Source: Phycisphaerae bacterium (GTDB taxonomy: Bacteria; Planctomycetota; Phycisphaerae; UBA1845; PWPN01). From it: a stretch of 61,734 nucleotides of DNA. Positions 8,155 to 36,654 of the stretch are shown one piece after another. Made by a program: the position numbers and the translations under genes. Within the stretch, counting starts at the first letter, position 1, and each line of letters opens with the position of its first letter. The DNA is taken from assembly GCA_016928855.1 (NCBI GenBank), contig JAFGKA010000213.1, positions 1-61,734 on the forward strand, read 5' to 3'. The notes below the pieces were generated by a model. That model had not been told where the DNA came from, ran no database searches, and was given only the letters and a program-made list of their open reading frames with translations.

Positions 8155-8201
8155 CATCAGGCGCAGGCATATCCTGGACAACGCGCAACGGATCGTGTAC
8201 A
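8155..8201 (+). repeat. First 47 bp of the outer element end (interrupted by the inner element)
   Basis: 44/47 identical to 8202-8248; continues at 22234. Confidence 0.9.
8197..8201 (+). repeat. 5-bp target site duplication GTACA (left copy)
   Basis: GTACA directly abuts CATC at 8202 and recurs at 22229-22233. Confidence 0.85.
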
Positions 8202-8288
8202 CATCAGGCGCAGGCACATCGTGGACAACGCGCAACGGATCGTGGACAACGGCGGCGCAGAACATCACCGCAGGCGGTCGGATGACCG
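8202..8288 (+). repeat. Inner element end with tandem putative transposase-binding sites (GCGCA-N4/5-ATCGTGGACAA)
   Basis: ATCGTGGACAA at 8218 and 8239 (21-bp spacing); terminus CATCAGGCGCAGGCACATCGTGGAC. Confidence 0.85.
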
Positions 8289-8393
8289 TCGCGGTTCCAA
8301 AAAAATCGGAGAACCTCAACTTTTTTTCGGGGCCTCAAGCACCCCGAAAACGGCCCTTCGAAAGACCCTCAAACGGCCGTTCCGGGCCTATCC

Positions 8394-9536
8394 TCAAGCC
8401 GCGCTTCCACCGGGGCCGAGCACGGCCTCCAGGAGCTTCGCGGCTTCGACTCTCAGTACCCTGGCCTCTTCCGAGGCCGCCTCTTCTTCACCCCCAAGTT
8501 CTTCACCCCCAACCCCGCCGGCCTGGCCGTCCGGATCGTCGTCAAGGCCGTAGAGCATCGCCTTGGTGAATCCACCGTCCAGGGCTTCCGCCACGCCCAC
8601 GGACGCAGCCTGGAGCCTCTCTGCGATCGCCTCGAAGCTCTGGATGATCGCCTGGCGGATCTCGTTCGTTGTCGGCTCTTCGCGCTGTAGGATGCTCAGC
8701 GGCCCGGCCAGGTCACCCGACCGCGGGACGAACTCATCCGACGCGGCCAGCAGAAGCGAAGACTCCAGATCGGCCGTCACGACGCCGAGCCGGTCCAGCC
8801 CGTCCCGCACGGCCTCGACGATAATGTTCACGCCCCGGTCGATCGCATCCTTCCGCCTGGCCGTGCCGGCCTCGCGTGTCGCCTGCCACGTCAACTTCCG
8901 GGCCAGGGCGATGAGCCCTTCGAGCGGCTCCACGGCATCAAGCCGCGTATGACGCTGAAGCTCGGCGACAAGGGCGGCCTGAGAGTACGCTTGGTAGGCT
9001 GTGCGGCCGGCCACGTCTTGCGACATCGCCCGGATTAGCGCCTCACGGTTGCTCGGCACGGCCACGCAGGAGATCTCCACCAACTCCCAGGATGTTACGC
9101 GTCGCACACTCACCGAGCGCCCCGCGACCTGTTGCATCTCGGTCCGCCCGTCCCGGCGAAGGAAGCCGACGCTGAACGCGTTCATAAACCCACCGGCATA
9201 GAGCGCGCGATATTCCGGCCCGAGGCCGACCGGCGAAAACTCACCGCGGAACGGCAACGCTTCCTCGGTCGGTGCGATCTCCAGCACCTTGCCGATGACC
9301 GGGCTGTGCCCGCTCTCGAATCGCGGCTTGTGCATCGCCATCAGCACGGGGTTTTTCCGGTAGCTGGAGAGGTCCACGCCGCGCGGTTCCAGAATCTCAC
9401 CGTCGCGGTCGATCGTCCGCGCGTTGGCGAGTGCGCTGAACCGGCCCGAATCATCGACGCCCTTCTTGTCGATCTCGGCGAAGATGACGCCTTTCGATCC
9501 TATACCCAGGCCGTCTGGTTCCCGTACCTTTGCCAT
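8394..9536 (-). CDS. HK97-family prohead protease with long C-terminal extension
   Basis: IDRDGEILEPRG, NPVLMAMH, FSVGF, ELVEISCVAVPSN in the first ~170 aa of 380. Confidence 0.88.
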   Translation of the reverse strand: MAKVREPDGLGIGSKGVIFAEIDKKGVDDSGRFSALANARTIDRDGEILEPRGVDLSSYRKNPVLMAMHKPRFESGHSPVIGKVLEIAPTEEALPFRGEFSPVGLGPEYRALYAGGFMNAFSVGFLRRDGRTEMQQVAGRSVSVRRVTSWELVEISCVAVPSNREALIRAMSQDVAGRTAYQAYSQAALVAELQRHTRLDAVEPLEGLIALARKLTWQATREAGTARRKDAIDRGVNIIVEAVRDGLDRLGVVTADLESSLLLAASDEFVPRSGDLAGPLSILQREEPTTNEIRQAIIQSFEAIAERLQAASVGVAEALDGGFTKAMLYGLDDDPDGQAGGVGGEELGGEEEAASEEARVLRVEAAKLLEAVLGPGGSAA

Positions 9537-9539
9537 AAC

Positions 9540-11102
9540 CTACTCCCGTAGCGACTCGCCGCGCCGCTCCGGCGCCGGAGCCGGCCCGAAAAACTGGTTG
9601 CCGTGCACGTTTGTGATGTTGTTAATAATCTGCCCGGCCTCACTCGCCCGACCCGCCAAAATGGTCTCGGCGGTCGGATCGGGTAGCCCCCTTCGTGACC
9701 ACGGACGGCGGTAGCCACCGATCGACGCGCCGATGTCCCTCAGTTGGTCGATCTGCCCGGCGGTCTCTGGTGTTTCGCCGACCCGCCCGATCGCCTCCCC
9801 GATTCGTTCCTGTATCAGTTTGGCCTCAATGGCGGCGACTTCGTTTGCCGGCGGTCCGGAGAACACCCCCAGTTCACCTGTCGCGAGCTGCTCCTTGTAA
9901 ACCTCCTCCGCCTCCTGCCGCAGACGGGCCGCGTCAAATCGCCCTTGCATTCCACGACGAAACGCCCGACGTGCCGCATCCTGCCGGCTCTGCGCCAGCG
10001 GCGTCTTCGTGAACGCGGCCGCGTCCGCCATCGCTGCCGTCTGGTCGATGTTGCTCACCTCGGCGAACGCCGCGGCGCCGGCCGCGCGGCTACCGGCGCT
10101 GAACATCACGAACAGATCGCGAATGTCCTGCCCGCCCCCGAACGCGGCCGCCACAACGTCTTGCTGTTCGGGCGTGGTTACGCCGCCGAGAACCCCGCCG
10201 AGCAGTTGCATTCGCTTATCCAGGGTCATCGACCCGAACGCCTGGCCGCGTTCCTTTGCCGCAGCCTCCAGAAACTTGCGAGACTCCGGTGTTGGCCCGG
10301 ACGCCAGCCGCGCGAACGTCTTCATCGACGTGGCGGCCAGGCCACCTTCGGCCGCCTCCTGCCGCGCCGCCACCGCATATGCGACAGTCGTTTCCAGGTC
10401 CACACCCTGCGACAGCATCGACGTACCGCCCCGCAGCATCTGCCCGACAAACTCGCCGACCGTCTCGGCCTTGCTCATCTCGGCGCCGCGCTGAATAATC
10501 AGCGCCGCTTCCCACATGTCCCGGCCGGATGCGCTGATGATCTGGAGGAACTTGCCCGCCTCGGCCTCCGGAATCGCGCCGGCACCGACCAGCGGCGCGA
10601 ACGCATGCAGCTTTTCGAGATTCTCCCGAAGCTTCGGATTGCCCTTCCTGAGCCCCAACGAAATATCACCGCTAATCCCCAGTGACACCGCCGTCTGTAA
10701 GTCCGGCAATGCCCCGCGCTCCTGTATCTGCGTCGCAATCCGCAAGGCCCGCTGTTGGCCGGCGAGAGAGGTATCCCCTAATTGCTTGGCGAACGGAAGC
10801 ACCGTCTCAAGTGCCGTAAGCCCCTCGCGGGCGATTTCCTTCAGTGCCGCCTGCACCCGCTCAAGATGGCTAACGAGTGCGCCGATAACACCCACAATCG
10901 CCTGGATACCAACGAAGCCCGCTACAAATGCAACGGCGGCACCGCCAGCGTTCCGGAGCATCGCCCCGAGCCCGCCGGTTTTCTCTTTGGCCTTGTCGGC
11001 CTGCGTGCCGATCTGCTCCTCGGCGCCGGCCACGCCGCGGAGCTTCTGCTGCGCCTGCTCGGTCCCGTCGGCCGTTACCCGGATTTTGATTTCGTCAGGC
11101 AT
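9540..11102 (-). CDS. Short tail tape-measure-like protein
   Basis: N-terminus IKIRVTADGTEQAQQKL, hydrophobic Ala/Gly segment, Ala/Gly/Gln-rich helical body, C-terminal INNITNVHGNQFFG. Confidence 0.7.
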   Translation of the reverse strand: MPDEIKIRVTADGTEQAQQKLRGVAGAEEQIGTQADKAKEKTGGLGAMLRNAGGAAVAFVAGFVGIQAIVGVIGALVSHLERVQAALKEIAREGLTALETVLPFAKQLGDTSLAGQQRALRIATQIQERGALPDLQTAVSLGISGDISLGLRKGNPKLRENLEKLHAFAPLVGAGAIPEAEAGKFLQIISASGRDMWEAALIIQRGAEMSKAETVGEFVGQMLRGGTSMLSQGVDLETTVAYAVAARQEAAEGGLAATSMKTFARLASGPTPESRKFLEAAAKERGQAFGSMTLDKRMQLLGGVLGGVTTPEQQDVVAAAFGGGQDIRDLFVMFSAGSRAAGAAAFAEVSNIDQTAAMADAAAFTKTPLAQSRQDAARRAFRRGMQGRFDAARLRQEAEEVYKEQLATGELGVFSGPPANEVAAIEAKLIQERIGEAIGRVGETPETAGQIDQLRDIGASIGGYRRPWSRRGLPDPTAETILAGRASEAGQIINNITNVHGNQFFGPAPAPERRGESLRE

Positions 11103-11386
11103 TCTGCTCCCATCTTCTACAATTCCTGTCGCCCGGTCATCGGCCCGTGGCCGCGCTTGAACTGCGTTTCCACGCCACGAAAACGCCGTTCAAGGGCGGC
11201 CCCGGCTGGGGCAACCCTCACAAAAGGATAGCAGGCATCTGCGGGCGTTATCGCCGGCCCGGTGAGAAGCCCCGGGACTTGCCACGACCCGCTGGGCAAG
11301 CGCAGAGCCGGCCCGCTCCACGGGCTCACGTCGGCTCTGTATTTCTGATGCGTCGATCGCATGCTTTCACTTCATCACCGCGCCGA

Positions 11387-12592
11387 TCAGGAATCCGCGG
11401 TCTTCAAGCCGATGATTCCACCGGGGTTGCTCGCATCGCCGCGGCTGACGCAAACGAAGTCTTGCCTCTGTGTGGCCCTCACCGCGAGAAGATCCTGCGA
11501 GAAGTATGCATCCGTGCTGCGCGCGATCTGGAGATCCCTGCGGACGCCGAGCAGGCAGCTCTTGCGGAAATCGCCGAACAGCGCGCACACCTGCGTGTTC
11601 GCTTCTGTGGAGGGCATCTTCGAACTGAAGTGGACCGGGTAGCCCAAAAACCTAGTCTGGCCGCCGATCACACCTAAAGTTATCTCTTGGGCCGTGACAC
11701 CCCCCGCCGCAAAGGCGAGCTTTTGCATCACTTCGTAAAAGAACTTGCGGTGCACGAGCCACCGCGCGTTGGCGTCGGCAAAATTCGGCAGCAGCCCTAT
11801 GACCTCCTGAAAATCGGCGAGCGTTAACTCACTGTACGCGTTGCCGCTGCCGGTTACCTTGCTGCCGGCCTGCAGCGCGGCGCGGACGCCGAGCACCTCC
11901 AGGTACGTGCTCGATCCGTCCCCATTGATGGCACTGTCGTCCATCTGCTCTGACATCGCGGTCGCGACCTCGTCTACGAGATACTCGCCAACACCGATGA
12001 CAGCGTCTTCGCTGAGTTCGCTCGAAATGGCCGTCAGCACTCCCCATTTCCGGGCGACCAGGTTGACGGCCTGAAGTGTCGGCGTGCTCGCCGTGATCGC
12101 GTTCCCCTCGCCGGGTTGGTAGACCGTCAGACCGGCCGACGCGACGGGCCAGGCTTGTGAATCGTGGCTCATCGGGACGACGCGGGCGAGTTGTCGCATG
12201 ACCCCGTAGGTATCCTGCAACCGAAGCACTTCGGCTGCCATATCCCGCGGGACCAGGATGCCGCCGCCGGCCTCCGTGCCCTCAACCAGCGTCTTGACAT
12301 CGACACCGTACTCATCCGCGGCCTTCCGGGCCGCATCGCGTTTCCCGGCGAGCGCCATCGCGAGCACCCCGAACCCCTCCGCGGCTCGCCTGCTCATCAG
12401 CTTGCCGCCGTAGTCGCTCGGGATGCTCCGGATCTGCTCCCGCCAGGCGGTATACTGCTTTTCCTGCTCACGCTTGACGACGTCCAACTCATCGGCGAAC
12501 TTTCCGAGGATATCGTCATTCTTGCCGAGCTTGTCCGCCACAGCCTTGAGGCTGTGTTGCACCTCGCCCAGGGCACTATTCATCGTACTCAT
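11387..12592 (-). CDS. HK97-family major capsid protein
   Basis: Coiled-coil N-terminus, EGTEAGGGILVP, GEG, ISSELSED, AINGDG, FLGYPV, LFGDF, VRATQRQD; GAGAGG RBS before ATG at 12592. Confidence 0.93.
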   Translation of the reverse strand: MSTMNSALGEVQHSLKAVADKLGKNDDILGKFADELDVVKREQEKQYTAWREQIRSIPSDYGGKLMSRRAAEGFGVLAMALAGKRDAARKAADEYGVDVKTLVEGTEAGGGILVPRDMAAEVLRLQDTYGVMRQLARVVPMSHDSQAWPVASAGLTVYQPGEGNAITASTPTLQAVNLVARKWGVLTAISSELSEDAVIGVGEYLVDEVATAMSEQMDDSAINGDGSSTYLEVLGVRAALQAGSKVTGSGNAYSELTLADFQEVIGLLPNFADANARWLVHRKFFYEVMQKLAFAAGGVTAQEITLGVIGGQTRFLGYPVHFSSKMPSTEANTQVCALFGDFRKSCLLGVRRDLQIARSTDAYFSQDLLAVRATQRQDFVCVSRGDASNPGGIIGLKTADS

Positions 12593-12751
12593 TGTGTACA
12601 CCTCTCGCGGGCCGATGCCCGCGTCGTTCACTGTTCCAACCGCCGGCGTTTTTCAATCGGGCCACCGGCCCCGCCCGTCGTGCCCTCTTGTCTCGGTCTC
12701 GCGTATGCGCTGTCGCCGGCGAAGGCTGTCCGGCCGCGTGACGCTTGAGAC

Positions 12752-13174
12752 CTACTGCGACGGCTCCTCCGGCAATCGCAGAGCTGCATCCATCACCAGC
12801 CACGCCGCTTCCGCGACGCGTTCGGCGTCCGCCCCGGGGACCATCCGCCCAAGAGCTTCCACCACTTCGACGAAACCGCCGCCGCTACCATCGCGAATCG
12901 CGACGAAGCACGCATCGAGCAGTGGGCCCACCTCGACACCCAACAGATCCGCGGCGACCAAGACCGGTCGCACATAAACGTAGCGCCGTCGCAAGTCCCG
13001 CAGCTTCGCGTGCCCGCGGCTGATGATCCGCGGGATCAACCGCCGTAGTCGTGTCGCCTTGGCGTCGTCGATGCCGTCGAGTTCGGCGAGCCACGCCGGC
13101 GCCTTCGCCTCGAACGTTTCGAGTTCGTGCGCAAACTGGACCGCACTGGCGTTGACTATCGCGAGCTCACTCAT
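12752..13174 (-). CDS. Hypothetical protein upstream of capsid gene
   Basis: Co-oriented ORF MSELAIVNAS..., helical composition; no recognisable motif. Confidence 0.6.
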   Translation of the reverse strand: MSELAIVNASAVQFAHELETFEAKAPAWLAELDGIDDAKATRLRRLIPRIISRGHAKLRDLRRRYVYVRPVLVAADLLGVEVGPLLDACFVAIRDGSGGGFVEVVEALGRMVPGADAERVAEAAWLVMDAALRLPEEPSQ

Positions 13175-13325
13175 CGCACTGGACGCCCTCAAAACAAAGC
13201 GCGGCCAGGCGGACCCGTCCGGGCCAACCAAGCCGCACTGTTATCGGAATCCGTTCCTTCATATGATGGCATCCTGCCCACCGGGCCGCCGTCCCTGGCG
13301 GCCGCACCCGCCGCGATCGCGGCGC

Positions 13326-13694
13326 CTACTTCATCTTCGCCCGCCGCTTCTTTGCGGTCGCGTCCTTCGTCGCGTACCGTTGCCGCTCACGCCTCGCCTG
13401 CCGTTCCACCACGCCCACGCCGATGGCGTCCAGGTCGGCGCGGATCTCGGCGGCCAGGCCGATGACCGCCTTCCGCTCCGCGTCGTGGAGCTGCCCGCTT
13501 GCCAGCGTGTGCACGACCAGGCGCAGCCGCGCCGCACAGTCGGCTAACGCGTAGAACACGCCGGCCGCCAGGTCGTCCTTCATCCAATCGAGTGATAGAC
13601 TGTATTTCGAGACCTGCCCGAACCGCACCGGCGGTCCTTCGCCCTCGATTTCCTCCAGCGTCGGTATCGCCGTCTTGATTCCTGTTCCGTACAT
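13326..13694 (-). CDS. Hypothetical protein with basic C-terminus
   Basis: 122 aa, AAGGTG upstream, co-oriented with the operon. Confidence 0.65.
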   Translation of the reverse strand: MYGTGIKTAIPTLEEIEGEGPPVRFGQVSKYSLSLDWMKDDLAAGVFYALADCAARLRLVVHTLASGQLHDAERKAVIGLAAEIRADLDAIGVGVVERQARRERQRYATKDATAKKRRAKMK

Positions 13695-13762
13695 AGAACA
13701 CCTTCCCGTTCAATCACCGCACTTCCGCCATCAGGCGGGTTCGTCGGACTCCTCGGTCGCCA

Positions 13763-14218
13763 TTAGTCGGCGGCCGAGTCCTCGGTAAACGCAACACCCA
13801 TCTGTGCGGCCTTGCGACTTTGATATGACCGCCACTTCGCGTAGTTGTAGACAGCCGCACGTCCACCCCGACAATCGCCGCTCAGATGAAAGACTTCCGT
13901 CTTGCCAAACTTCGTAGGAATTGCCGCAACGCCGTAGTGCTTATCGAGCGTGGCGTAGCACTCCAGACAAATAAACGCCCTCCGGTGCTGGCTGTTTCTG
14001 TGATACTGAACGTAGGCCCGGAAGAACTCATCTTGAAGGTGTTCCGGGATGGCGTTCAAATCCGGAAACTTGTTCTTGATCCGCTCGAATTCGCGTTCAG
14101 GATCGACCCGCATCCGCACGGAGCGAGCCATGGGGGCTCGGCACCCGCACGCCTCACATTCGATCGTATTCTTCTTGCTCATGAATTTTGTCTCACTTGC
14201 GTGGTTCGGGGTTTTCAT
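13763..14218 (-). CDS. Hypothetical protein with two CxxC motifs (putative Zn-binding)
   Basis: CEAC and CLEC about 60 aa apart. Confidence 0.65.
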   Translation of the reverse strand: MKTPNHASETKFMSKKNTIECEACGCRAPMARSVRMRVDPEREFERIKNKFPDLNAIPEHLQDEFFRAYVQYHRNSQHRRAFICLECYATLDKHYGVAAIPTKFGKTEVFHLSGDCRGGRAAVYNYAKWRSYQSRKAAQMGVAFTEDSAAD

Positions 14219-14248
14219 TCACCTCAGCGCGCCGCCCGTTTTCACCCT

Positions 14249-14452
14249 TCATGCGGCACCGCCTGGCGACTCGTCGTAATCCGGTGAAAGGCCTTCGAGC
14301 ATATCCATAAGCGACCGCATCCCCTGCCACTTCATGCGCCGGGTGATCTCGGCCACGATCGTTGCCCGCCAGATCAACTCATCCAAAACGCCATCAAGAT
14401 CCTCGGCGGTCCCTTTCTTTAGTTCCGCCAACATTCGTTCGCGCGTTGTCAT
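14249..14452 (-). CDS. Small hypothetical protein, paralog of 14449-14763
   Basis: Shares the EDLDxVxxELxxRAxIxAxIT...M..L...E...PDxD pattern; ATGA overlap with its neighbour. Confidence 0.7.
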   Translation of the reverse strand: MTTRERMLAELKKGTAEDLDGVLDELIWRATIVAEITRRMKWQGMRSLMDMLEGLSPDYDESPGGAA

Positions 14453-14763
14453 GATTGGATGACCTCCGCCTTCTGCTGTTGGCCTTCACCTGCATCGCCG
14501 CCGCTCGGGTCGAGAAGCTCACCGACCTCTTCATCATCCAGATCCGGTACGGTCGATTCCTGGAGGTTCTTCAGTATCTTCATGTCCCAGTAATGCAGTT
14601 GCCCTGTGATCCTCGCGATGATTCTCGCCCGCGCCCGCAACTCGCCGCAGACGGCATCAAGGTCTTCCTCGCTGGCACACTTCAGCAGCGTGTCACAGAC
14701 GATATCGAAGTCCTCGCCCTTCGCGCCCCTCAACAGCGCTAGTAGTTCCTTCTTTGTTACCAT
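14449..14763 (-). CDS. Small acidic hypothetical protein, paralog of 14249-14452
   Basis: AGGAG RBS; MVTKKELLALL... Confidence 0.7.
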   Translation of the reverse strand: MVTKKELLALLRGAKGEDFDIVCDTLLKCASEEDLDAVCGELRARARIIARITGQLHYWDMKILKNLQESTVPDLDDEEVGELLDPSGGDAGEGQQQKAEVIQS

Positions 14764-14944
14764 GATCCCGTACTCCTGTGCCTGTGAAATGGAGCCCGGC
14801 CCGCCGGCAACCCGCAAGGGGGGATCGCGGGGGCAGCCGTAGTGGTCGGCCGCCGGCCGGCAGGGCCGGGCACGCTTGGATACGTTACGGCCACTACCCG
14901 CAACGCCATTGGAAACCCATTCGAACTGTTGTTACTTCGCGTTT

Positions 14945-16219
14945 TCACGCCGTCCTCGGGGCATACAACTGCTGCACCTGGCGGTCAGTCTCGGCCGTCA
15001 CATCGTCGCCCATCGCCAGCCGGTTCGCCTGGCGGACCATCTCCAGAGTGATGAGCGGCTTTCCCGGATTCGCAATCATCGCGATCTCGAAAACACTGAT
15101 GGCATACCGAAGCCCGCCGCCCTCGACGCCGTCGCCGAGCGCCGTCAGATTCGCCAGGTCGGTCAGGAACTTGATCGCGCCGCGTTCAATCCGCACGGTA
15201 TACTTCCCCAACATCTCGGCGACCTCCTCGACACTGAAAAGCCGCTCGCCATCTCGCCCACCGGTCTTCTGACTGCGTGCGAGCAAGTCCCGTTGGATGC
15301 AGATCCGGCCGACGATACTGCCGCCGATCCGCTCATCCCGCTGCGACCGTTTGAGCTTCGCAACCAGCAGCGGCCGGCCCGCCAGAACCACCGGACAGCC
15401 TGTCGCGTCATGGATCTGGCGAATTGCGTTGAGCGTGTCCGCCGGCAACGCGTCCGCCTCGTCCGCGACGATCAGCCGCTTCGAGCCGGCCAGCCTTGCG
15501 ACGATCGCAGAGAAGCCGGCGGCAAGCGTGCACACCCCTTCATTGTGGGATGCCCCCGCCACGCGGCCCGGCAGTGCCGAACCCGTGCGGATGCACCGAA
15601 GCAATGTGCGGTAGAAATGCAGCGGGGCCTTGCAGGAGTCGTTGATCTCGACGTACAGCCCGCTCGGGAAATCCTTGGCCATCACCGCGCGGAGGGCGAG
15701 CGTTTTGCCGATGCCCGACGGCCCGTAAACGACACCCATCCCGCCGCGAAGATCGACCGTCTTGACGATCGCGAACACCTCGCGCGCTACACCCGTCGTG
15801 ACGAACTCGCCCTTGGCCGGCGCGTTGGCCCGCGCGGCCTCACGGGCCAGTGCCGCATCGAGCGAGCGCAACACATCATCCCGCCGGTTGCGTTCACCCT
15901 GCCGCCCTGAATCGCCCTGCAACGCCATGCCCAGCACGTACACAGACACGCCGCATAGCCGCGCCAGATCCACCCGGGACGCGCCAGTCGCCCGCTGATA
16001 GACTTCAGCGCGGCCGACAATCTCGGCGCGGATTTCCTCGGTCAACTCGGCCCCGGGTTTGACGCGCGGCGTGCTTTCGACGCGCGCGGCCCGCTCGATA
16101 CCATCCATGGCGTCCGGTGGCGCATCCGGCGGCATGGCCGGCGCGAATGGATCAGTAACCCAGTCGGATACATGTCCGCCCGGGGGAATCGTCGGCTTGT
16201 TGTGTGGTGTGTCCGTCAT
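14945..16219 (-). CDS. MuB-like AAA+ transposition ATPase with N-terminal HTH
   Basis: VYGPSGIGKT (Walker A), LIVADEAD (Walker B), IRQIHD, PVVLAG; HTH SRVDLARLCGVS; overlaps the transposase stop. Confidence 0.9.
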   Translation of the reverse strand: MTDTPHNKPTIPPGGHVSDWVTDPFAPAMPPDAPPDAMDGIERAARVESTPRVKPGAELTEEIRAEIVGRAEVYQRATGASRVDLARLCGVSVYVLGMALQGDSGRQGERNRRDDVLRSLDAALAREAARANAPAKGEFVTTGVAREVFAIVKTVDLRGGMGVVYGPSGIGKTLALRAVMAKDFPSGLYVEINDSCKAPLHFYRTLLRCIRTGSALPGRVAGASHNEGVCTLAAGFSAIVARLAGSKRLIVADEADALPADTLNAIRQIHDATGCPVVLAGRPLLVAKLKRSQRDERIGGSIVGRICIQRDLLARSQKTGGRDGERLFSVEEVAEMLGKYTVRIERGAIKFLTDLANLTALGDGVEGGGLRYAISVFEIAMIANPGKPLITLEMVRQANRLAMGDDVTAETDRQVQQLYAPRTA

Positions 16220-20140: not shown

Positions 20141-20162
20141 CCCCAAAATCGTCTTTTGTCCA

Positions 20163-25492: not shown

Positions 25493-25526
25493 GCACTACC
25501 TCCAGCCATCCAAACGCTCATAGGAG

Positions 25527-26258
25527 TCAGGCCTTGATCAGATACTTGAGCCCGATGACGAACAGGAACACGAATACGATCATCCGCAGCCGTTCGCGCT
25601 TGACGCGGTGAAGGACATGTGTACCGCCCAGAATGGCCAGCACCAGGGGAACGATTGCGAGCAGGCCGGTCCACAAGAAATCGGTTCGGAGCAGTCCGTG
25701 ATTCTGAACCAGGATCAGTCGGATGATCGAGGGAATCAGGAAGACCAACTGTAGCAGAGCCACGATATGCTCTTTGGTCCAGTCTTGCGAGTATGCATAG
25801 ATCACCGCCGGCGGGCCGCCGGCGTGGAACGCGCCGCTCAACATACCGCTGATGCTCCCCATGACGACGCCGTACTTCTTGGGAATATTGAACGGGCGGA
25901 TGCGGGACATCACAACTTCCCGGAGCGAGTACAGACAGATGAATATGCCCAGCCCGCGCATCAGCCACTCGGACGGCACATGGACCATCACGTAGAAGCC
26001 AACCGGTAGCGCCACGCACGAGCTGATCAGCAGGTCGAGGCCTTGGCGCCATCGATAGTGCTTGATGTTGCCCATCAGGGTCATGCTGCAGGTCACCAGA
26101 ACCATGATCGAGACGATCGTATACGCGCCTTCGAAGCCGAGAAGCAGCGGCAACAGCGACATCGAGACGAGGCCAAAGCCGAATCCAGTCACGCTCTGAA
26201 CAAATCCGGACAGGGCAATCGCCCCTATCGTAAGAACCATCATCAAGTCGCTGTTCAT
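25527..26258 (-). CDS. TauE/SafE family exporter
   Basis: SGFVQSVTGFGFGLV, SGMLSGAFHAGGPP; multiple TM segments. Confidence 0.88.
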   Translation of the reverse strand: MNSDLMMVLTIGAIALSGFVQSVTGFGFGLVSMSLLPLLLGFEGAYTIVSIMVLVTCSMTLMGNIKHYRWRQGLDLLISSCVALPVGFYVMVHVPSEWLMRGLGIFICLYSLREVVMSRIRPFNIPKKYGVVMGSISGMLSGAFHAGGPPAVIYAYSQDWTKEHIVALLQLVFLIPSIIRLILVQNHGLLRTDFLWTGLLAIVPLVLAILGGTHVLHRVKRERLRMIVFVFLFVIGLKYLIKA

Positions 26259-27301: not shown

Positions 27302-27312
27302 ATACCTGCACC

Positions 27313-28776: not shown

Positions 28777-28867
28777 GGTCTGACCTCGCAATTGTCTCGT
28801 CTTCCTGACTGGAGGTGATACCGGCCCATGGATGTTGTCTTGCGTGCGCCCGGGCCGATCGGCCCAG

Positions 28868-30361
28868 TTACCGCAAGACCTCACACAGCGTCACGTCCGG
28901 CGTCGGCCTGACGAACGCGAAGGGCAACGAAGGCGTGCAGAGACCCGGCACCGCCTGCCCGCCGTGGTACATCCCCATGCCGTAGTAATTCCCGAACACC
29001 TCGTGCAACACGTTTCCCACGTGCGCGCGCGTCACCGCCACGTGATGCGGGAAGTGCCGCAGCAAGATATCGCGATACATGTGCGGCAACCCGTGGAGAC
29101 GACACCAGCCGTACGCCCCAAAGGTGTTCGCTGAGTTGTCCTCGAATCGGCCCTGACCCAGAAATACCTTCCAGCCCTCGCCCGGCATGCCCTGGGTTAT
29201 GCGGCAGACCGTGGCCGGACCTTCGCGGACGACCAGTTCCAGCACACCAGTGGATTTGTCCGTCCCGATGTGCCTGCTCATGATCCCCTGGGCCGCCATC
29301 GTTGGCCGGCTCTTTCCGAATGACGGGGGGTACACGCCGCAGTGCCAGAGATTGACCAGCTCCGGGTCGTCATTGTGCAAGTTGTTCCAATCCAGCAGGG
29401 CCGCCGGCGAATCCGCCGCGAGTTGCAGGGCGTACATCGACAGGGCGCCGAGCACATCGGACTCGCAGGCGTGCGGAATCCCGCGATCGCCCATTCGCGC
29501 CATGACGCCGCAGGCCACAATTCCGTAGTTCAGTTGCAGGGAGTTCCAGCACTGGACAGCCACGGCATCGAGTTCCGCCTGCTTGATCAGGTCATCCAGA
29601 GCTCGCTCGAACTTGGCAATCCTCAGCAGGATCTCGTCAGCTACTGCAGCGGTGTCCGCGCAAGACCGGATGCTGTCAAGCTTGTTGCGAACCTCGGCGT
29701 CATCGTCGCTTAATCGCGAAATGGCCCCCAGGACCTCTGACAGATCCTTGGGGACAACGGTCACTCCAATCTGCTGCAGCATCTTCTCGTCGCATCGGCA
29801 GGTCCAGAAAGCCTCCGGCCGCGGCCCGATCTGTCCGATCCGGCAGCCGCGGAGGCCCTTGAGTACCCGGCATACGCGAGCAAAGTGGTCCACCTCCGTG
29901 TGGAACTGTTCATCCGTCGGCAGGCAGATCGGCGTCTGGGCGACCGTGTAACGCACCCCGATCTGACGCATGGCCTCGGCGATGGAAAGAAGGCCGCAGA
30001 AGGCGTCCCGCCGCTTCATCCCGGCATGCAGCGCCTCTTCTTCCTGGCAACCGTAGATCAGGACAGGCACGTTGGCTCCGCAGCTCTGAACCGCGGTCGC
30101 GATGCCTTGTTCGTCTCCAAAGTTGACCGCGCCCACCAGAATCCCGTCAACACCTTCGCGACGGAAGAGTCCCCCGCACCGGTGGCCTTCGTCCCGGTTC
30201 TTGACGCAGCCGACGTCGGTCATTGTTTCGTCCGGGACCACCGCGTCGATTTCCAGGCTGGCGAGCACAGCCAGCGTCTCGCGGCGGGCCTTGGCGGCCA
30301 TTTCGGTGGAGAAGTAACGTCGGTTGGCAGGTATGAACCCGAGCTTCACCTTCGACGTCAT
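28868..30361 (-). CDS. L-fucose/L-arabinose isomerase family protein (possible sulfoquinovose isomerase)
   Basis: NFGDE, RRDAFCGLLS, AVQCW, ACESD, WHCG, FPHHVA. Confidence 0.82.
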   Translation of the reverse strand: MTSKVKLGFIPANRRYFSTEMAAKARRETLAVLASLEIDAVVPDETMTDVGCVKNRDEGHRCGGLFRREGVDGILVGAVNFGDEQGIATAVQSCGANVPVLIYGCQEEEALHAGMKRRDAFCGLLSIAEAMRQIGVRYTVAQTPICLPTDEQFHTEVDHFARVCRVLKGLRGCRIGQIGPRPEAFWTCRCDEKMLQQIGVTVVPKDLSEVLGAISRLSDDDAEVRNKLDSIRSCADTAAVADEILLRIAKFERALDDLIKQAELDAVAVQCWNSLQLNYGIVACGVMARMGDRGIPHACESDVLGALSMYALQLAADSPAALLDWNNLHNDDPELVNLWHCGVYPPSFGKSRPTMAAQGIMSRHIGTDKSTGVLELVVREGPATVCRITQGMPGEGWKVFLGQGRFEDNSANTFGAYGWCRLHGLPHMYRDILLRHFPHHVAVTRAHVGNVLHEVFGNYYGMGMYHGGQAVPGLCTPSLPFAFVRPTPDVTLCEVLR

Positions 30362-30444
30362 GTCCGCAGACTCCTCGCTTGTGCGGCGGGCATCGCCGCG
30401 CCCCATACGGCCTCCACGTTCCCTGTAACCGATGCCTCGCCACG

Positions 30445-30509
30445 TGTCAAGACAAATATTCAAAATCGTATAAATACGGTTGACAGCCGCCGGCATCTGT
30501 TGTTATATT
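30445..30509. promoter_or_regulatory. Divergent promoter region with palindromic operator candidate
   Basis: TTGACA on both strands (30445-30450 minus, 30480-30485 plus), TATATT at 30504; CGTAT-AA-ATACG palindrome at 30467-30478. Confidence 0.6.
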
Positions 30510-30522
30510 CCGTGTAATAACC

Positions 30523-31653
30523 GTGATGAGGATCCCGGTGGCAGGTGCACATATTTCTGATAGTGAAAATCTAAAACGCCATCGCCTCCTGCGGCAGATT
30601 CGCCGACTGGGCCAGGCCAGGCGTCTGGAGTGTTCTCGCTCCCTTCGAATCAGCAACGCGCGGGTATGCGATCTGATCCAACAGATGCTGGACCAGAAAC
30701 TGTTGATTGAGGACGGAGACGGAAGCGAGCGACGAGGGCGGAAGGGTTCGCCCGTGCGGCTGAACCCGAATTACGGTCATCTGGTCGGCTTCGACGTGGA
30801 GGCTAAGCGTCTCCGACTGGTTGCCACCAACTTCTCCGGCGACACGGTCTGGGAAACGCACCAGAAGCTGATACCTCCCGCGGATCGCCGCAAACTGATC
30901 GACGTGATCCTCAGCTTCATTGACAAAGGCCTGAGGGAAATCCGCGGCCGATTCCGCCGTGTGCTGGGGATCGGTTTGGCGGCCAACGGGATCATCGACG
31001 TCCGGCGCGGTGTGATTCTCCACTATGACCTGGTTCCGGCGGCAAGGGATATACCGCTGCGCGACCTCGTCGCGGGCCAGACGAATCTGCCGTGCTGCAT
31101 GGACAACAACATACGGGTCCTGACGCTCGCAGAATGGATGAGGGGAGCGGCGCAGCATCTGCACACCTTCGTCTGCCTAGCCGTCCGAAGCGGCGTGGGG
31201 GCCGGAATCGTAATGGACGGCAAACTGTATGTCGGCAGCCATGGCTTCGCCGCGGAGCCTGGTTATACGCCGGTAACCTTCGGGCAGGACGCGAGGCAGT
31301 GGAAGCATCTGCATAACGTCGTGTCCGAGATCGCGCTCGGGGTGGACGTCGAGGCCGCCGACTTCAAGCTCAGCGTGGGCAAGGCCCGTCGCGCGGGTGA
31401 GTTGCTGGGGGCTTATCTGGCCACCATTGCGGCGTTGCTCGACCCGCAAGCCATCGTGCTGGCCGGCGGCCTTGTTCGGCCGGATGGGCCGCTTTGGGAT
31501 CCGATGGTCCGGGTGTTTCGGCAGACGGTGGTCCCAGAGCTGGCGGATCGGGTGCAGATTCTGCCCGCTCGACTCGGTCCCTACGCAGCCGCTATCGGGG
31601 CGGCGCATCGTTGTTTTGAGATGCTCTACCCGGTGGAGGTGACCGGCGCCTGA
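30523..31653 (+). CDS. ROK family transcriptional regulator
   Basis: N-terminal HTH, GRKG..V.LNP, GIGLA, MDNN, GVGAGIV..G, IGAA. Confidence 0.9.
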   Translation: MMRIPVAGAHISDSENLKRHRLLRQIRRLGQARRLECSRSLRISNARVCDLIQQMLDQKLLIEDGDGSERRGRKGSPVRLNPNYGHLVGFDVEAKRLRLVATNFSGDTVWETHQKLIPPADRRKLIDVILSFIDKGLREIRGRFRRVLGIGLAANGIIDVRRGVILHYDLVPAARDIPLRDLVAGQTNLPCCMDNNIRVLTLAEWMRGAAQHLHTFVCLAVRSGVGAGIVMDGKLYVGSHGFAAEPGYTPVTFGQDARQWKHLHNVVSEIALGVDVEAADFKLSVGKARRAGELLGAYLATIAALLDPQAIVLAGGLVRPDGPLWDPMVRVFRQTVVPELADRVQILPARLGPYAAAIGAAHRCFEMLYPVEVTGA

Positions 31654-31777
31654 TGTGCCTCACGGTGCGACGCCGGCGCTGGAACAAATACATGCGATTG
31701 AGTAACGCCCTGATCTGTACGTTCCACGCCGACGGGAAAGCCAACTGAGTCCGCGGGCTTCTTGAAAGGTCAATGTC

Positions 31778-32902
31778 GTGTTCAGTTTTCAATATCACTC
31801 GCCTGTGCAGATCTGCTTCGGGTACGGCGCGCGCGACACGCTGGGCGAAGTCGCCGGCCGGTTGGGCGGTAAGGGTTTTCTGGTGGTCGACCCTGGCGTG
31901 GCGTCCTCACCGCTGTTCAAGGCGTACATCGAGTCGCAGACCGCTCTGCTGGCGGGCTGCTTCGATAAGGTCGAGCCAAACCCCAGCGTCGGTTGCGTCT
32001 CACGCATCGCGGCGCAGATTCGCTCGACAGGCGCAGGATTTGTCGTGGCCCTCGGAGGGGGCAGCACGATCGACGCCGCCAAGGCCGCAGCCCTGTCGGC
32101 CGGGGGTTCGCCCATCGAGGAATACCATTCCGGCCGCCGTCCGGCGGGTGAGAACGCCTTGCCGGTGATCGCCATGCCAACCACGGCCGGCACCGGCAGC
32201 GAGGTCACCGCGGTCTCCGTGCTCACGGACCCCGCCCGGGGCGTGAAGGCTCCCATCGGCGGGCCGGCGCTCCTGCCGCGCGTGGCCATCGTCGACCCCG
32301 AGTGGACCGTGTCCGTTCCGCCGACAGTCACGGCCGCCACCGGCATGGACGCGCTGAGTCATGCCCTGGAGGCCTATTGGGGCGTCCACGCCCAACCCAT
32401 TTGCGACGCGCTCGCGGAGAAGGCGGCTTGGCTGATCCTGGATTCGCTGGAGCAGGCGTACGCCAACGGCTCGGACCGCGACGCCCGCGAAAAGGTTGCA
32501 CTGGGCAGCCTGCTTGCCGGCCTTGCATTTGCCGCACCCAAGACCGCCGCGGTGCATGCCTGTTCGTTCCCACTTACGCAGCGATTCAGACTCCCCCACG
32601 GTGTGGCCTGCGCCCTGACCTTGGACCGTTTCCTCGAGTACAATACCCTGGCGCTGCCCGAGAAACTGGCCCACCTCGCCCGGCAATTGGGTCTTGAGGG
32701 TGTGCCGGCGCTGGCGGCGCGAATCCGGACGATGAAGCGGAACATGTCACTGCCCACCACCCTCGCTGACGTGGGCATCCATGAGCAGAATCTGCCGGCA
32801 CTTGTCGCTGAGAGTTTTCATCCCAACATGCGGAACAATCCCCGCGAAGTGACCCCTGCGGATTTGATGGCGATCTATTCGTCCCTCCAGGAGACCCACT
32901 GA
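31778..32902 (+). CDS. Iron-containing alcohol dehydrogenase
   Basis: GGGSTIDAAK, PTTAGTGSEVT, GMDALSHALE, PHGVAC. Confidence 0.92.
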   Translation: MFSFQYHSPVQICFGYGARDTLGEVAGRLGGKGFLVVDPGVASSPLFKAYIESQTALLAGCFDKVEPNPSVGCVSRIAAQIRSTGAGFVVALGGGSTIDAAKAAALSAGGSPIEEYHSGRRPAGENALPVIAMPTTAGTGSEVTAVSVLTDPARGVKAPIGGPALLPRVAIVDPEWTVSVPPTVTAATGMDALSHALEAYWGVHAQPICDALAEKAAWLILDSLEQAYANGSDRDAREKVALGSLLAGLAFAAPKTAAVHACSFPLTQRFRLPHGVACALTLDRFLEYNTLALPEKLAHLARQLGLEGVPALAARIRTMKRNMSLPTTLADVGIHEQNLPALVAESFHPNMRNNPREVTPADLMAIYSSLQETH

Positions 32903-32903
32903 C

Positions 32904-33749
32904 GTGTGTGAGTTCAAGAAGGAAGAGTTCGACAGGCTGGCCGCCGAGTGGCGATACATCATCACCGACATGATCTGCAGGGCGGGGTCCGGCCATTTGG
33001 GCGGGGCGCTCAGCCTCGTCGAGATCGTGATGACCCTCTACAGGCGGGTGATGAGGATTGCCCCCGAGAATCCCGAGTGGCCCCAGCGCGACCGGCTGAT
33101 AGTCTCCAAGGGCCATGCCGGCCCGGTGGTGTACATCGCCCTGGCGCACGCGGGTTTCTTTCCGGCCAACTGGCTGAAGACGCTCAACGCCGACGGAACG
33201 CGCCTACCCAGCCACTGCGACCAGAGCCGCACACCCGGTATCGACATGACCACCGGATCGCTTGGCCAGGGCCTGTCGTGCGCGTGTGGCCTGGCCCTGG
33301 CCGGCAGGATGGATGGCAAAAAGCACCGCCTCTTCTGCATTGTCGGCGACGGCGAATGCCAGGAGGGCCAGATCTGGGAGGCGGCCATGTTCGCCGGTCA
33401 CCACAAGCTCGACAACCTCGTGGCGATCACCGACTACAACCAGCTCCAGATCGACGGTTTCGTCAAGGATATCAACACGCTCGAACCGCTGGTCGCCCGC
33501 TGGCGGGCCTTCGGCTGGGAAGTGTTCGAGATCAACGGCCACGACTGGGATGACATCTACAACGGGCTTAACAAAGGCATCGCGGTCACCGGCAAGCCCG
33601 CGATGATCATCGCCCACACAATCAAGGGCAAGGGTTGCCGCGAAATCGAGAACAAGCCTGAAAGCCACAACATCAAGATTGCGGATGCCGCAGCCTATCA
33701 GAAATACATGAATGCCCTGGAAGTAACCGACGTTACACTCCCATATTGA
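32904..33749 (+). CDS. Transketolase, N-terminal (ThDP-binding) subunit
   Basis: SGHLGG, SKGHA, TTGSLGQG, GDGECQEGQIWEA. Confidence 0.93.
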   Translation: MCEFKKEEFDRLAAEWRYIITDMICRAGSGHLGGALSLVEIVMTLYRRVMRIAPENPEWPQRDRLIVSKGHAGPVVYIALAHAGFFPANWLKTLNADGTRLPSHCDQSRTPGIDMTTGSLGQGLSCACGLALAGRMDGKKHRLFCIVGDGECQEGQIWEAAMFAGHHKLDNLVAITDYNQLQIDGFVKDINTLEPLVARWRAFGWEVFEINGHDWDDIYNGLNKGIAVTGKPAMIIAHTIKGKGCREIENKPESHNIKIADAAAYQKYMNALEVTDVTLPY

Positions 33750-33805
33750 GGCTGCCGTCGACCGAACTGGCGAGGAGACCGCACACCGGTTAGCGAGATT
33801 CACAT

Positions 33806-34756
33806 ATGCCTGAGCTTCATGAAATGGAAATGCGTGCCGTTTACGCCCAGACGCTCAACGAGCTGATGGACGTGAATCCCAACGTGCTGTGCCTGGAGGC
33901 GGATCTGAGCAAAGCCTCGGGCACAAATCCGGCCGTAGCCAGGATGCACGCCGAGAACTTCATCAACGTGGGTGTAGCCGAGGCCAACATGGTGTGCATC
34001 GCCGCCGGCCTGGCCCGGGAGGGTAAGATCCCGTTCTGCGCGACCTTCACGTGCTTCGCGGCGCGGCGCGTGTACGACCAAGTGACCATCAGCGTCGCCT
34101 ACGCCAATAACAATGTAAAGATCGTCGGCACCGCGCCGGGCATCACCGCTGGCCCCAACGGCGGCACGCACATGTGCTTCCAGGATCTGGCCATCATGCG
34201 GGCCATGCCCAACATGCATGTGTACAGCCCATGCGATGCCTACGAACTACGCTCCGTCATCCGCCACATGGCTGAGTCGAAACAGCCCACCTACATGCAG
34301 CTCGTTCGCGAGAAGGTCGGGCCAGTGTTTGGCGAGGATTATCGGTTCGCTCCTGGCAAGGCCGTCGTGGTCCGAGAGGGGCGCGATGTCACTGTAGTCT
34401 CGACCGGGTATATGACCAGCTTCGCGATCGAGGCGGCGGAAGAGTTGGGCGCCCATGGCGTCAGGACAGAGGTGCTGCACTGTCCTTCGGTCAAACCATT
34501 TGACGTGGAGACCCTCGTGGAATCCGCGCGCAAGACCCACGCAGTGGTCACCATCGAAACTCAGAACGTCATCGGCGGGCTCGGTTCCGCCGTCTGTGAA
34601 ACACTCTCCGAGCACTGCCCGACGCTTACCAGACGCCTGGGCATCCCCGATCGCTTCGGAGAGGTCGCAACCGCGGATTACCTGTTCAACAAACACGGCT
34701 TCGGCGTGAGCCACATCGTGAAGGCCTGCCGGCAGATGATGGAAAGGAAATTCTGA
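33806..34756 (+). CDS. Transketolase, C-terminal subunit
   Basis: NVGVAEANM, GGTHM, SVKPFD, GGLGSAV. Confidence 0.93.
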   Translation: MPELHEMEMRAVYAQTLNELMDVNPNVLCLEADLSKASGTNPAVARMHAENFINVGVAEANMVCIAAGLAREGKIPFCATFTCFAARRVYDQVTISVAYANNNVKIVGTAPGITAGPNGGTHMCFQDLAIMRAMPNMHVYSPCDAYELRSVIRHMAESKQPTYMQLVREKVGPVFGEDYRFAPGKAVVVREGRDVTVVSTGYMTSFAIEAAEELGAHGVRTEVLHCPSVKPFDVETLVESARKTHAVVTIETQNVIGGLGSAVCETLSEHCPTLTRRLGIPDRFGEVATADYLFNKHGFGVSHIVKACRQMMERKF

Positions 34757-35229
34757 TGAAGATGGCCATCGCTTCAACCCGGGCGGGTCTCACCCTCAAG
34801 GATGAACTCATTGCCTTTCTGACCGGACTCGGCCACAAGGTGGACGACTTGGGCATGAAGGTCGGGGGAGAGTTTGTTCCCTATTACGAGTCGGCGGCCC
34901 GCGTGGCTGCGGCGGTGAGCCGTGGTGAGTACCCCCGTGCAATCGTCGTCTGCGGCACAGGAGCCGGTAGCGCGATCGTGGCCAACAAGTTCAAAAACGT
35001 CTACGCCGTCCATGCCAGCAGCGAGTATGAAGGGCGGCGGGCCACCATGATCAACAATGCCAACATTCTGGCCCTCGGTGAGTGGGTCACTCCGCCTCAG
35101 CATGCAAAGGAGATCGTGAAGGGCTGGCTGGACGCAACGTTCGGCGAGGGCTTCGAGCCAGACTGGCAGGGATTCCTTGCGAAAGCCTGCGAGGAAGTGA
35201 AGACGATCGAAGCCCGGAACATGGCATGA
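34756..35229 (+). CDS. RpiB/LacA/LacB family sugar isomerase
   Basis: VVCGTGAGSAIVANK, NNANILALG; the usual N-terminal DH motif is replaced by STR. Confidence 0.88.
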   Translation: MKMAIASTRAGLTLKDELIAFLTGLGHKVDDLGMKVGGEFVPYYESAARVAAAVSRGEYPRAIVVCGTGAGSAIVANKFKNVYAVHASSEYEGRRATMINNANILALGEWVTPPQHAKEIVKGWLDATFGEGFEPDWQGFLAKACEEVKTIEARNMA

Positions 35230-35954
35230 ACGAAGTTCTGCTATTCACTGTGATTGCTTGCATCGGCATCCTGGTCCAGTCCTTTGCCGGTTTCGCCGGA
35301 TCCCTGACCGCGATCCCGCTCTTCTCGCTGTTTTTGCCGCCCAGAGAGGCGATACCGGCTTTCAACATGGTCATGCTGCTGGTAGACGCATGGCTGGTAT
35401 TCGAAGCGCGCCGGTATATCCAGTGGGGTCGCGTGGGCAGGCTGATGGTCGGCGCAGTCGCGGGGATTCCTATCGGGGCTTACGGGCTCAAGTACCTGCC
35501 GACCCACGTGCTTGGACTGATCATCAGCATCGTCACGCTCATCTTCGCGATCCTTTTCCTGCTCAAGATCAGGATCAACCTCAAGGAGAACGCGGGCACA
35601 CAGATGTGCGTCGGCCTGCTGAGCGGGTTCCTTGGCGGAAGCATCTCGGAATCGGGCCCCCCGGTAGTCATCTATGGTCTGGCGCGCGACTGGGACAAGA
35701 ATGCATTCCGGACGACCCTCCTGACCTATTTTACCTGCCTGTGTGTGCTGGCCCTCTTATGCTACTGGCAACTTGGGCTGCTGTCGGGAAAGAGCCTGTC
35801 TACGTTCTCGGCCGCAATCATTCCATGCTTTCTCGCCGCCATCTTCGGCTTGGTGTTCAAGAACCGGGTGGGCGAGGCCACGTTTCGCAGGGCCGTCCTG
35901 GCGGTCATTATCATGGTCAGCCTGATCGGACTCATCCGATCGCTCTGGATGTAA
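35226..35954 (+). CDS. TauE/SafE family exporter
   Basis: VQSFAGFAGSL, SGFLGGSISESGPP; ATGA overlap with the rpiB-like gene. Confidence 0.86.
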   Translation: MNEVLLFTVIACIGILVQSFAGFAGSLTAIPLFSLFLPPREAIPAFNMVMLLVDAWLVFEARRYIQWGRVGRLMVGAVAGIPIGAYGLKYLPTHVLGLIISIVTLIFAILFLLKIRINLKENAGTQMCVGLLSGFLGGSISESGPPVVIYGLARDWDKNAFRTTLLTYFTCLCVLALLCYWQLGLLSGKSLSTFSAAIIPCFLAAIFGLVFKNRVGEATFRRAVLAVIIMVSLIGLIRSLWM

Positions 35955-36092
35955 CAACCCGACAGAGACCGTAGCCTTGGAAATCACTGAGAGAGAATGC
36001 CAATGAACCCATGGCATGATGGTCTTCAGGCGTTCCCGCTCGCCCTGACATCCAGCCCGATACGCTGGGCGTCGTCGAGACCAAAGCTGAGC

Positions 36093-36440
36093 CTGCCCGA
36101 ACACGTTTCGAGCGATGTCGACGAGATTGTCTACGTGAGATGTGTGCGGCAAATCGTTGGCGGCGAAGATGAGCGTCTTCGGGAAACGACCGGTCTCGCG
36201 CTCGTGCTCTTAAGTATGCTTGCGAATTTCTTCGAGGATCTTTCGGTTCGAGTCGGGTGACGTGACCTTGTGCTCGACCTCCGGCGCCTCAAACTGTCGC
36301 TCGTCCTCCAGCAAATCCAGTTATTCTGAACCCCTTTCCGGATCCACGATGCCTGCCTGCTCACCTGCACTCAGAAACACGCCGTTCATACGCACGTCCG
36401 AGCGAACGTCGACGACATCGTAGTCGACGAGGTACGCTCC
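36093..36440 (-). pseudogene. hsdR: Internal fragment of a type I restriction subunit (HsdR-like helicase) with two in-frame stops
   Basis: Manual translation: AYLVDYDVVDVRSDVRMNGVFL...E*LDLLEDERQF...DSNRKILEEIRKHT*EHERETGRFPKTLIFAANDLPHTSHVDNLVDIARNVFG; stops at 36321-36323 and 36210-36212. Confidence 0.7.
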
Positions 36441-36534
36441 GCGGGTATGCGCGCGGCTGCGCGAGGCACGGGGCACGCTCGGGATACTTCTCGTGACCCC
36501 TGAAACCGAAAGGATTTAGCCCGTTATCTACGAT

Positions 36535-36654
36535 ACCCCCGATTTCGGCGTTTTCTCTACGATGCGCCGATCGAACCGTAAACCAAGCTCTAATAAGCCT
36601 TTACCCCCGTTTTTCGCCCCTTTTCTTTTGGCTCTGTTTTCCCTGTGCTTCATG
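36535..36654 (-). repeat. Outer element end, homolog of inner end 22109-22228
   Basis: 84/120 identities without gaps; terminus CATGAAGCACAGGGAAAAC on the minus strand; ATCGTAGA(T/G)A site variants at 36524-36534 and 36554-36563. Confidence 0.85.

Follow-up and report, generated by a model that had tools for sequence, protein, structure and literature searches.

Are two Mu-type ends that lie on either side of a cluster of sugar genes the borders of a single mobile unit, or are they relics of separate insertions? The question is raised by positions 8155-36654 (the outer interval) of a 61,734-nucleotide stretch of DNA from a Phycisphaerae bacterium, which we call the window and which makes up one entire contig of a metagenome-assembled genome that is split into 606 contigs (5.28 Mb). 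A Mu-like element (8202-22228, the inner element) is nested in the outer interval, and a preliminary description of this DNA had proposed that the interval itself is a mini-Mu-like vehicle with related ends and almost the same length, mobilised in trans. Of that proposal, the true pairing of the ends, a real breakpoint at 8155 and a cargo that looks acquired have stood up, but the sequence holds no sign that the outer pair moved as a unit (no duplication and no second copy). We favour, tentatively and at somewhat less than even confidence, the view that the outer interval is a dead composite, in which decayed Mu-type ends of separate origin enclose an acquired island.

The outer ends and their decay

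The pieces of the outer ends, together with the element that parts two of them, are the following (the two GTACA copies by direct sequence comparison):

8155-8201, plus strand: initial 47 bp of the outer left end, starting CATCAGG; 44/47 identical to 8202-8248
8197-8201, no strand: left GTACA copy of the target duplication of the inner element
8202-22228, minus strand: inner Mu-like element, 14,027 bp (Pfam, PHROGs, duplication and site map)
22229-22233: right GTACA copy of the same duplication
22234-22273, plus strand: remaining 40 bp of the outer left end; 36/40 identical to 8249-8288
36519-36654, plus strand: outer right end, of the transposase-proximal type, ending ...CTTCATG

When its two pieces are joined (8155-8201 and 22234-22273), the outer left end agrees with that of the inner element (8202-8288) at 80 of 87 positions, and the likeness ceases at 22273, 24 bp short of the first cargo gene's stop codon. 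On the other side, 36535-36654 aligns without gaps to the inner right end (22109-22228) with 84/120 identities. The chance level of such likeness was obtained by sliding the end pieces along both strands of the window: the 120-mer gave a mean of 31.0 identities (sd 4.9) and a next best value of 53, and the next best values for the 47-mer and the 40-mer were 28 and 25, respectively. A repeat search independently recovered the left-end pieces (47 nt at 94% and 43 nt at 91%), and blastn aligned 36519-36624 to 22092-22198 with 75% identity (E 1e-13). Both end alignments of the preliminary description, including the stop of the right ends at the same CAT, were thereby reproduced, both far above the background of the window. 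CAT is the terminus at all four ends, outer and inner, and the outer pair consists of two homologous ends of one family in the correct (inverted) orientation. Their relatedness to the inner ends is unequal, as had been pointed out earlier, with 92% on the left and 70% on the right. Mu-type ends have the form TG...CA, and by that comparison the CA...TG termini found here are unusual.

With positions counted from each terminus, the inner left end carries ATCGTGGAC at 17 and 38, and the inner right end carries ACCGTGGAC at 17, ATCGTGGAT at 92 and ATCGTGGAC at 140, all five sites of the inner element being ATCGTGGAC or one base off. The sites of the outer ends have decayed. The left end has ATCCTGGAC at 17 and ATCGTGTAC at 38, with one core substitution each, and the right end has ATCGTAGAG at 92 and ATCGTAGAT at 121, each two positions off, and no recognisable site at position 17. 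The spacing of the inner-lying right-end sites also differs (92/121 in the outer end versus 92/140 in the inner end), and the two right ends have kept a block at positions 30-60 better than the transposase sites.

The inner element is flanked by a perfect 5-bp target duplication, GTACA, and this target falls within the second site of the outer left end, the insertion parting the first 47 bp of that end from the remainder. As the sequence stands, the inner transposase would probably not be able to move the outer pair as a unit, and the outer ends have probably lost their function; the lost site at 17, the mutated left sites and the split second left site speak against use by that transposase today. 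In Mu, DNA at or beside the ends is immune to Mu insertion through the action of MuA and MuB, as set out in parts of two papers (PMC7350765, PMC2837660). By analogy, the insertion of a MuB-bearing element 47 bp inside a related end suggests that its transposase did not bind that end.

Contigs of four runs, X1 (the probable source), X2, X3 and X5, were compared with positions 6001-26000. A second, independent assembly of the source run agrees with this segment at every position, so that the junctions at 8155, 8202 and 22228 and the nesting are not artefacts of assembly; the junction at 36654 is known from the given contig alone. A joint in X1 from 14550 to 22274 was rejected as spurious, one of its sides having only 23 letters.

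The absence of a 5-bp target duplication around the outer pair was borne out, the flanks GCGGG and GGTTT sharing one of five positions. A likeness of these flanks to the end sites, noticed by eye, was not significant against 200 shuffles. The preliminary description had suggested a search of the genome with both ends, and no further copy of either outer end was found in the 5.28-Mb assembly, nor was a second copy found in the genome, metagenome and viral contig collections searched. The terminal pattern gave 50 single matches in genome contigs, none of the 50 longer than 31 nt and none of the 50 with an inner-element protein coded, and a scan of 400 other genomes of the class gave 3 matches to the conserved block of the right end, compared with 6 to its reversed control. 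When the inner element and one GTACA are removed, the outer unit measures 14,468 bp, compared with 14,027 bp for the inner element, the same lengths as were first given.

The enclosed sugar genes and the border at 8155

The genes between the outer ends, and those next to them, are:

22298-30496, minus strand: cargo block A, seven genes (family matches and counterparts in genome G015)
30523-35954, plus strand: cargo block B, six genes (family matches)
36093-36446, minus strand: hsdR scrap of 118 codons with two in-frame stops
6817-8055, minus strand: left flank, sugar regulator with a GntR-type helix-turn-helix (HTH) and a periplasmic-binding domain; host DNA
36763-37932, plus strand: right flank, gene of the URO-D / MtaA-CmuA-like family; host DNA
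38086-39729, minus strand: MFS sugar transporter in the right flank

The enclosed 14.4 kb comprises 13 intact genes of sugar catabolism and the 118-residue hsdR scrap, and family searches together with the alignment of the scrap to the HsdR of genome G002 agree with the earlier statement that the interval holds only metabolic genes and an hsdR scrap. No remnants of Mu-type genes were detected between the outer ends, and tblastx of the cargo against the inner element gave no significant match. Block A encodes two xylose-isomerase-like TIM barrel proteins, three GFO/IDH/MocA oxidoreductases, a TauE-family permease and a FucI-like isomerase; block B encodes a ROK regulator/kinase, an Fe-alcohol dehydrogenase, a split transketolase (N and C halves), an RpiB/LacAB-family isomerase and a second TauE-family permease.

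The likeness of the cargo to G015, a genome from a different genus within the same family, differs greatly from that of the flanks. At the nucleotide level G015 matches the cargo at 83% over 3.7 kb and at 77% over 2.75 kb, with protein identities of 74-93% for XI1, GFO1, XI2 and TauE1 and of 80-82% for the ROK and FucI-like proteins. In contrast, 19.7 kb of the right flank had no match in G015 at E<=1e-20, the nearer right flank matched it just in a ChlI/ComM-like gene (76%), and the left flank just in 233 bp at 79% and at a paralogue level of 64%. Parts of the sugar cluster occur in other genera at 71-72%. Because the cargo is far closer to G015 than the flanks are, the cluster has probably moved between lineages, and we regard the sugar island as probably acquired horizontally, judging from its sequence. 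The comparison of composition that had been proposed at the outset gave a divided answer: the tetranucleotide distance of the cargo is mildly atypical (94th percentile of 110 genome chunks of 14 kb; GC 0.612 versus a chunk mean of 0.636), but its codon use is ordinary (84th percentile; third-position GC, GC3, 0.767 versus 0.764).

The homologous cluster of G015 ends at the same gene stop and is followed by unrelated sequence and then by a transposase fragment at the contig end, and no likeness to a Mu-type end was found at its border. The fragment lies about 330 bp past the last gene and is presumably IS256-like. The G015 cluster (L023, G015:C154, 8356-13049) is itself degraded, with a fragment of the third oxidoreductase (GFO) fused to the middle of TauE1.

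Relatives of the left flank show that 8155 is a real breakpoint. Besides X1, four public runs hold small parts of 6500-9500. A 7227-bp contig of X2 (depth 16) matches 6833-8155 with 92 differences and goes on with 459 bp unlike 6001-26000, and a 972-bp contig of X5 matches 7478-8155 with 41 differences and goes on with 294 bp unlike the same segment. Both relatives are about 93-94% identical to the left flank, and both depart from it within one base of the predicted terminus and have neither the inner element nor the rest of the left end nor the first 3.7 kb of the cargo. Since relatives from two samples depart at the terminus, 8155 is a real insertion border, and a sugar cluster in synteny without the ends, which had been named as the outcome that would speak against a vehicle, is not what the X2 and X5 relatives have. 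In addition, a 257-bp contig of X2 (record 10), about 94% identical, spans 8166-8421 and with it the junction of the outer and inner left ends, so that the nested arrangement is present outside the source sample, in a diverged relative. The depth of X2 is about 16 on the left flank and at most 4.7 over 22009-26000; missing contig cover there is not evidence, and nothing was drawn from it.

Family-level synteny was absent on both sides of the site in the representative genomes, which are too distant. The URO-D-like gene of the right flank has 74-79% nucleotide identity in G004, G017, G002 and G026, and its N-terminal 116 aa, searched against 5.8 billion proteins, had a best match of 84% and none on a contig of 7227 or 972 bp, the lengths of the X2 and X5 contigs with the breakpoint. 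For the GntR protein of the left flank a single close relative (92%) was found, on a 1595-bp contig that is too short to inform, and a search of metagenome contigs with this protein gave nothing usable. No tRNA genes were found in the window. Farther to the left, 6196-6408, the last ~200 nt of a DUF4185 gene, has more than 40 places of about 70-75% identity in G004 and is found on many contigs of other runs, which points to a widespread C-terminal module common to many genes. Between the DUF4185 gene and the regulator gene, 6418-6832 (415 bp) is replaced in the X2 relative by 26 other letters.

The hsdR scrap corresponds to residues 392-509 of the 913-aa HsdR of G002 (61% identity, E 3e-41), and this homologue (L103:91-2832) carries the domains ResIII, Helicase_C, EcoEI_R_C and HSDR_N. 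In 8 of 150 other genomes of the order, open reading frames (ORFs) 907-985 aa long match a 51-residue piece of the scrap. The scrap was identified solely through such homologues in relatives, as Pfam, NCBIfam, a plasmid tblastn and the PDB gave no identification, and no other hsdR pieces were found in the assembly. A broken hsdR beside the right end is the kind of remnant that decaying regions typically contain.

Two observations concern the possible substrate of the cargo. The sulfo-transketolase (sulfo-TK) pathway of sulfoquinovose, as far as it is described in parts of one paper (PMC9594981), uses SqvD (a FucI homologue), the split transketolase SqwGH, the PF02502 isomerase SqwI and the PF00465 reductase SqwF. 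All four of these Pfam families are present in the cargo (28868-35954), along with the two TauE permeases; the NCBIfam scores are far below the cut-off of 700 (124 bits for sulfoquinovose isomerase and 227 bits for sulfoacetaldehyde reductase), no sulfoquinovosidase was seen in the cargo, and the match of enzyme families is a lead only. A block A oxidoreductase has a weak match to the glycoside 3-dehydrogenase family BT_2158 (166 bits versus a cut-off of 750), and the three GFO/IDH/MocA proteins and two TIM barrels (22298-28884) hint at an oxidative route of glycoside cleavage.

The inner Mu-like element

The genes of the inner element are listed here in the direction of minus-strand transcription, preceded by the one gene on the plus strand:

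20156-21736, plus strand: repressor-like HTH ORF, adjoining the end at 22228
18141-19262, minus strand: HTH protein
16216-18141, minus strand: MuA-like transposase
14945-16219, minus strand: MuB-like AAA+ protein
between the MuB-like and capsid genes, minus strand: four small ORFs
11387-12631, minus strand: HK97-type capsid protein
9540-11102, minus strand: 520-aa ORF
8394-9536, minus strand: prohead-protease-like ORF

The inner element is a Mu-type transposable element, with a DDE transposase, a MuB-type ATPase, a 5-bp duplication and terminal site repeats. The transposase passes the Pfam cut-offs for DDE_2, HTH_Tnp_Mu_2 and Mu-transpos_C, and the MuB-like protein passes that for AAA_22. The gene order is Mu-like as well, the repressor-like HTH gene diverging from the minus-strand HTH, MuA and MuB genes. 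Among the ORFs of the element that were tested, no terminase, portal, tail or lysis genes were recognised, and the 520-aa ORF had no family match, the single lead being a tape-measure-like protein. With its compact 14.0 kb, the element resembles a satellite-type or reduced transposable phage.

Homologues of its MuA occur in 8 of 34 other genomes of the family with identities of at most 49%. At five such loci MuA is present in all five and MuB in three, a capsid or protease gene is present in none of the five, and no clusters of the site motif were found at the ends of these loci. Homologues of the capsid protein were found in 6 of 400 other genomes of the phylum, where the six loci also hold the protease (6/6), MuA (4/6) and MuB (3/6). 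A scan for duplications and inverted repeats did not give the borders of these distant elements, as all candidates cross ORFs, and pairwise comparison of the capsid-homologue loci gave the left border only. A search of viral contigs with the MuA protein gave one match, and no usable relatives of the element were obtained through MuA (genome, metagenome and viral contigs) or the capsid (viral contigs).

Explanations for the paired ends

Under the view that we favour, the left end would derive from a close relative of the resident 14-kb element and the right end from a more distant member of the family, the two most likely stemming from different insertions or elements, and the interiors of both older elements would have been lost by deletion or rearrangement. 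The sugar island would have been gained horizontally, with the terminus at 8155 marking one border of the inserted DNA, and the 14,027-bp element would later have landed by transposition in the left relic, at its second transposase-binding site, giving rise to the GTACA duplication. The near-equal lengths would be due to chance. This is the order of events that we infer, along with a separate origin and a loss of function of the outer ends.

Several points weigh against this scenario. Two random relics would form a correctly oriented pair in about 1 of 8 cases, and a spacing within 3% of the length of the autonomous element would come up in about 2% of draws from 0-50 kb (the former an estimate, and both post hoc). 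The relics are bare cis-acting ends of 87 and about 135 bp from which gene remains are absent, and bare ends are what a selected non-autonomous element would retain. The loss of a duplication is possible in one step, either by a replicative adjacent deletion of the Mu type or by recombination between two copies. A random insertion would strike an 87-bp related end within 5.3 Mb of genome with a probability of about 2e-5, which makes chance very unlikely, and a hit on a relic end could mean that the inner transposase binds that end, the reverse of what the analogy with Mu immunity suggests. Furthermore, an acquired-looking cargo and relatives that break at the terminus are what the insertion of a unit predicts.

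The alternative that survives best, although we consider it unlikely, is a once-mobile, non-autonomous mini-Mu of about 14.5 kb that was moved by MuA and MuB in trans, was limited in length by a small capsid and is now dead; its sites would have mutated, its duplication would have been lost by adjacent deletion or recombination, and the helper would have inserted in its left end. Such an origin would account for the correct orientation of the pair and the CAT common to the four termini, for the lengths of 14,468 and 14,027 bp, for the retention of bare ends alone, and for the exact breakpoint at 8155 in relatives from two other samples. The greater closeness of the cargo than of the flanks to G015 (83% over 3.7 kb and 77% over 2.75 kb versus no match over 19.7 kb), its tetranucleotide profile at the 94th percentile and the right-end block at 30-60, which is better kept than the transposase sites, are also consistent with it. 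However, both a duplication and a second copy are absent, the likeness of the ends is unequal (92% versus 70%), the terminal site of the right end is lost, the copy of the cargo in G015 is without the end, the codon use of the cargo is ordinary, and the match in size is a single case (n=1) recognised post hoc.

It is rather improbable, in our estimation, that an earlier member of the family caused a replicative rearrangement of the Mu type (intramolecular transposition, replicon fusion or a transduction-like event) by which foreign or distant DNA was brought beside the ends, so that these would share a history and would never have formed a discrete mini-element. Replicative transposition leaves scars such as missing duplications and rearranged neighbours. 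The missing outer duplication would be the expected scar, and the internal hsdR fragment beside the right end, with unrelated DNA on both sides, and the exact breakpoint at 8155 fit as well; but an additional deletion would be needed to leave ends of 87 and 135 bp, the unequal relatedness of the ends is not explained, and the 61.7-kb contig has neither a partner copy nor an inverted segment.

We give still less weight to the possibility that the sugar cluster is native and its pairing with the ends a pure coincidence, or that the right junction is an assembly join. The flanks are sugar-related, too (the regulator on the left and the MFS sugar transporter on the right), the codon use of the cargo is ordinary, and the independent assembly leaves the junction at 36654 uncovered. 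Against this, the first cargo gene does not appear in the 459 and 294 bp that come after the left flank in the X2 and X5 relatives, respectively, and the cargo is far closer to G015 than the flanks are. Least probable of all, and very doubtful, is a currently active cargo vehicle mobilised and packaged by the inner transposase and capsid: a seemingly intact helper, whose ORFs include MuA-like, MuB-like, capsid and protease genes, is present in cis, and the nested arrangement occurs in X2 also, but the outer left end is split by 14 kb, the right end has lost its site at 17 and the remaining outer sites are altered, and there is neither a duplication nor another copy.

Among known systems, the laboratory mini-Mu, in which the L and R ends of Mu surround passenger DNA and which is moved by MuA and MuB in trans and packaged by a helper, comes to mind first. 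The outer unit is like this system of mini-muduction in its bare L and R ends with repeated sites, its passenger genes, the lack of a transposase of its own and the helper-type element nearby. Units of the mini-Mu(LR) kind are described in parts of two papers (PMC5847225, PMC3145075). Unlike them, the outer unit is natural, has no 5-bp duplication, has unequal ends with decayed sites, and has 5'-CA...TG-3' termini. In mobile insertion cassettes, transposon ends around passenger genes are likewise mobilised in trans, and the outer unit is similar to them in that it has ends only, carries metabolic passengers and shares its genome with a related autonomous element; such cassettes are, however, defined by multiple copies or target duplications, and the outer unit has neither.

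Genomic islands with borders made of mobile-element relics share with the outer interval an accessory catabolic cluster, mildly atypical composition, a breakpoint in relatives and a pseudogene scrap. What sets the outer interval apart is that its two relics form a correctly oriented pair of one end family, with a spacing equal to the length of the live element nested in one of them. If our favoured scenario of relic ends of separate origin applies, the outer interval would be such an island, i.e., of a known kind.

Capsid-forming phage-inducible chromosomal islands (cf-PICI), P4-like satellites and gene transfer agents offer models of how a small capsid may restrict the amount of DNA carried. 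The inner element is like the capsid-forming satellites in its length of about 14 kb and in having capsid and protease genes and no recognised terminase, portal or tail genes, but it integrates by Mu-type transposition and not by an integrase, and the outer unit is devoid of genes for particles or mobility. In the most far-reaching reading, which seems to us doubtful, the outer unit would be a present or recent natural mini-Mu, a cargo cassette reduced to the cis-acting ends of a family of small Mu-like elements with capsids, moved by their transposase and sized to their small capsid. A satellite-like transposable element and a derivative that carries genes would then make up a dedicated system that transduces metabolic operons among planctomycetes.

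To our knowledge there is no natural counterpart to the laboratory mini-Mu cargo elements, and a non-exhaustive, keyword-level search of the open-access literature found no natural cargo element of this type. If the outer interval did move as a unit, it would be the first such counterpart and would tie the size of a cargo to a small capsid. If it is a relic only, it would be an ordinary mobile-element graveyard bordering an acquired catabolic island, and the relic would be a marker of the past activity of poorly known small Mu-like elements in Phycisphaerae.

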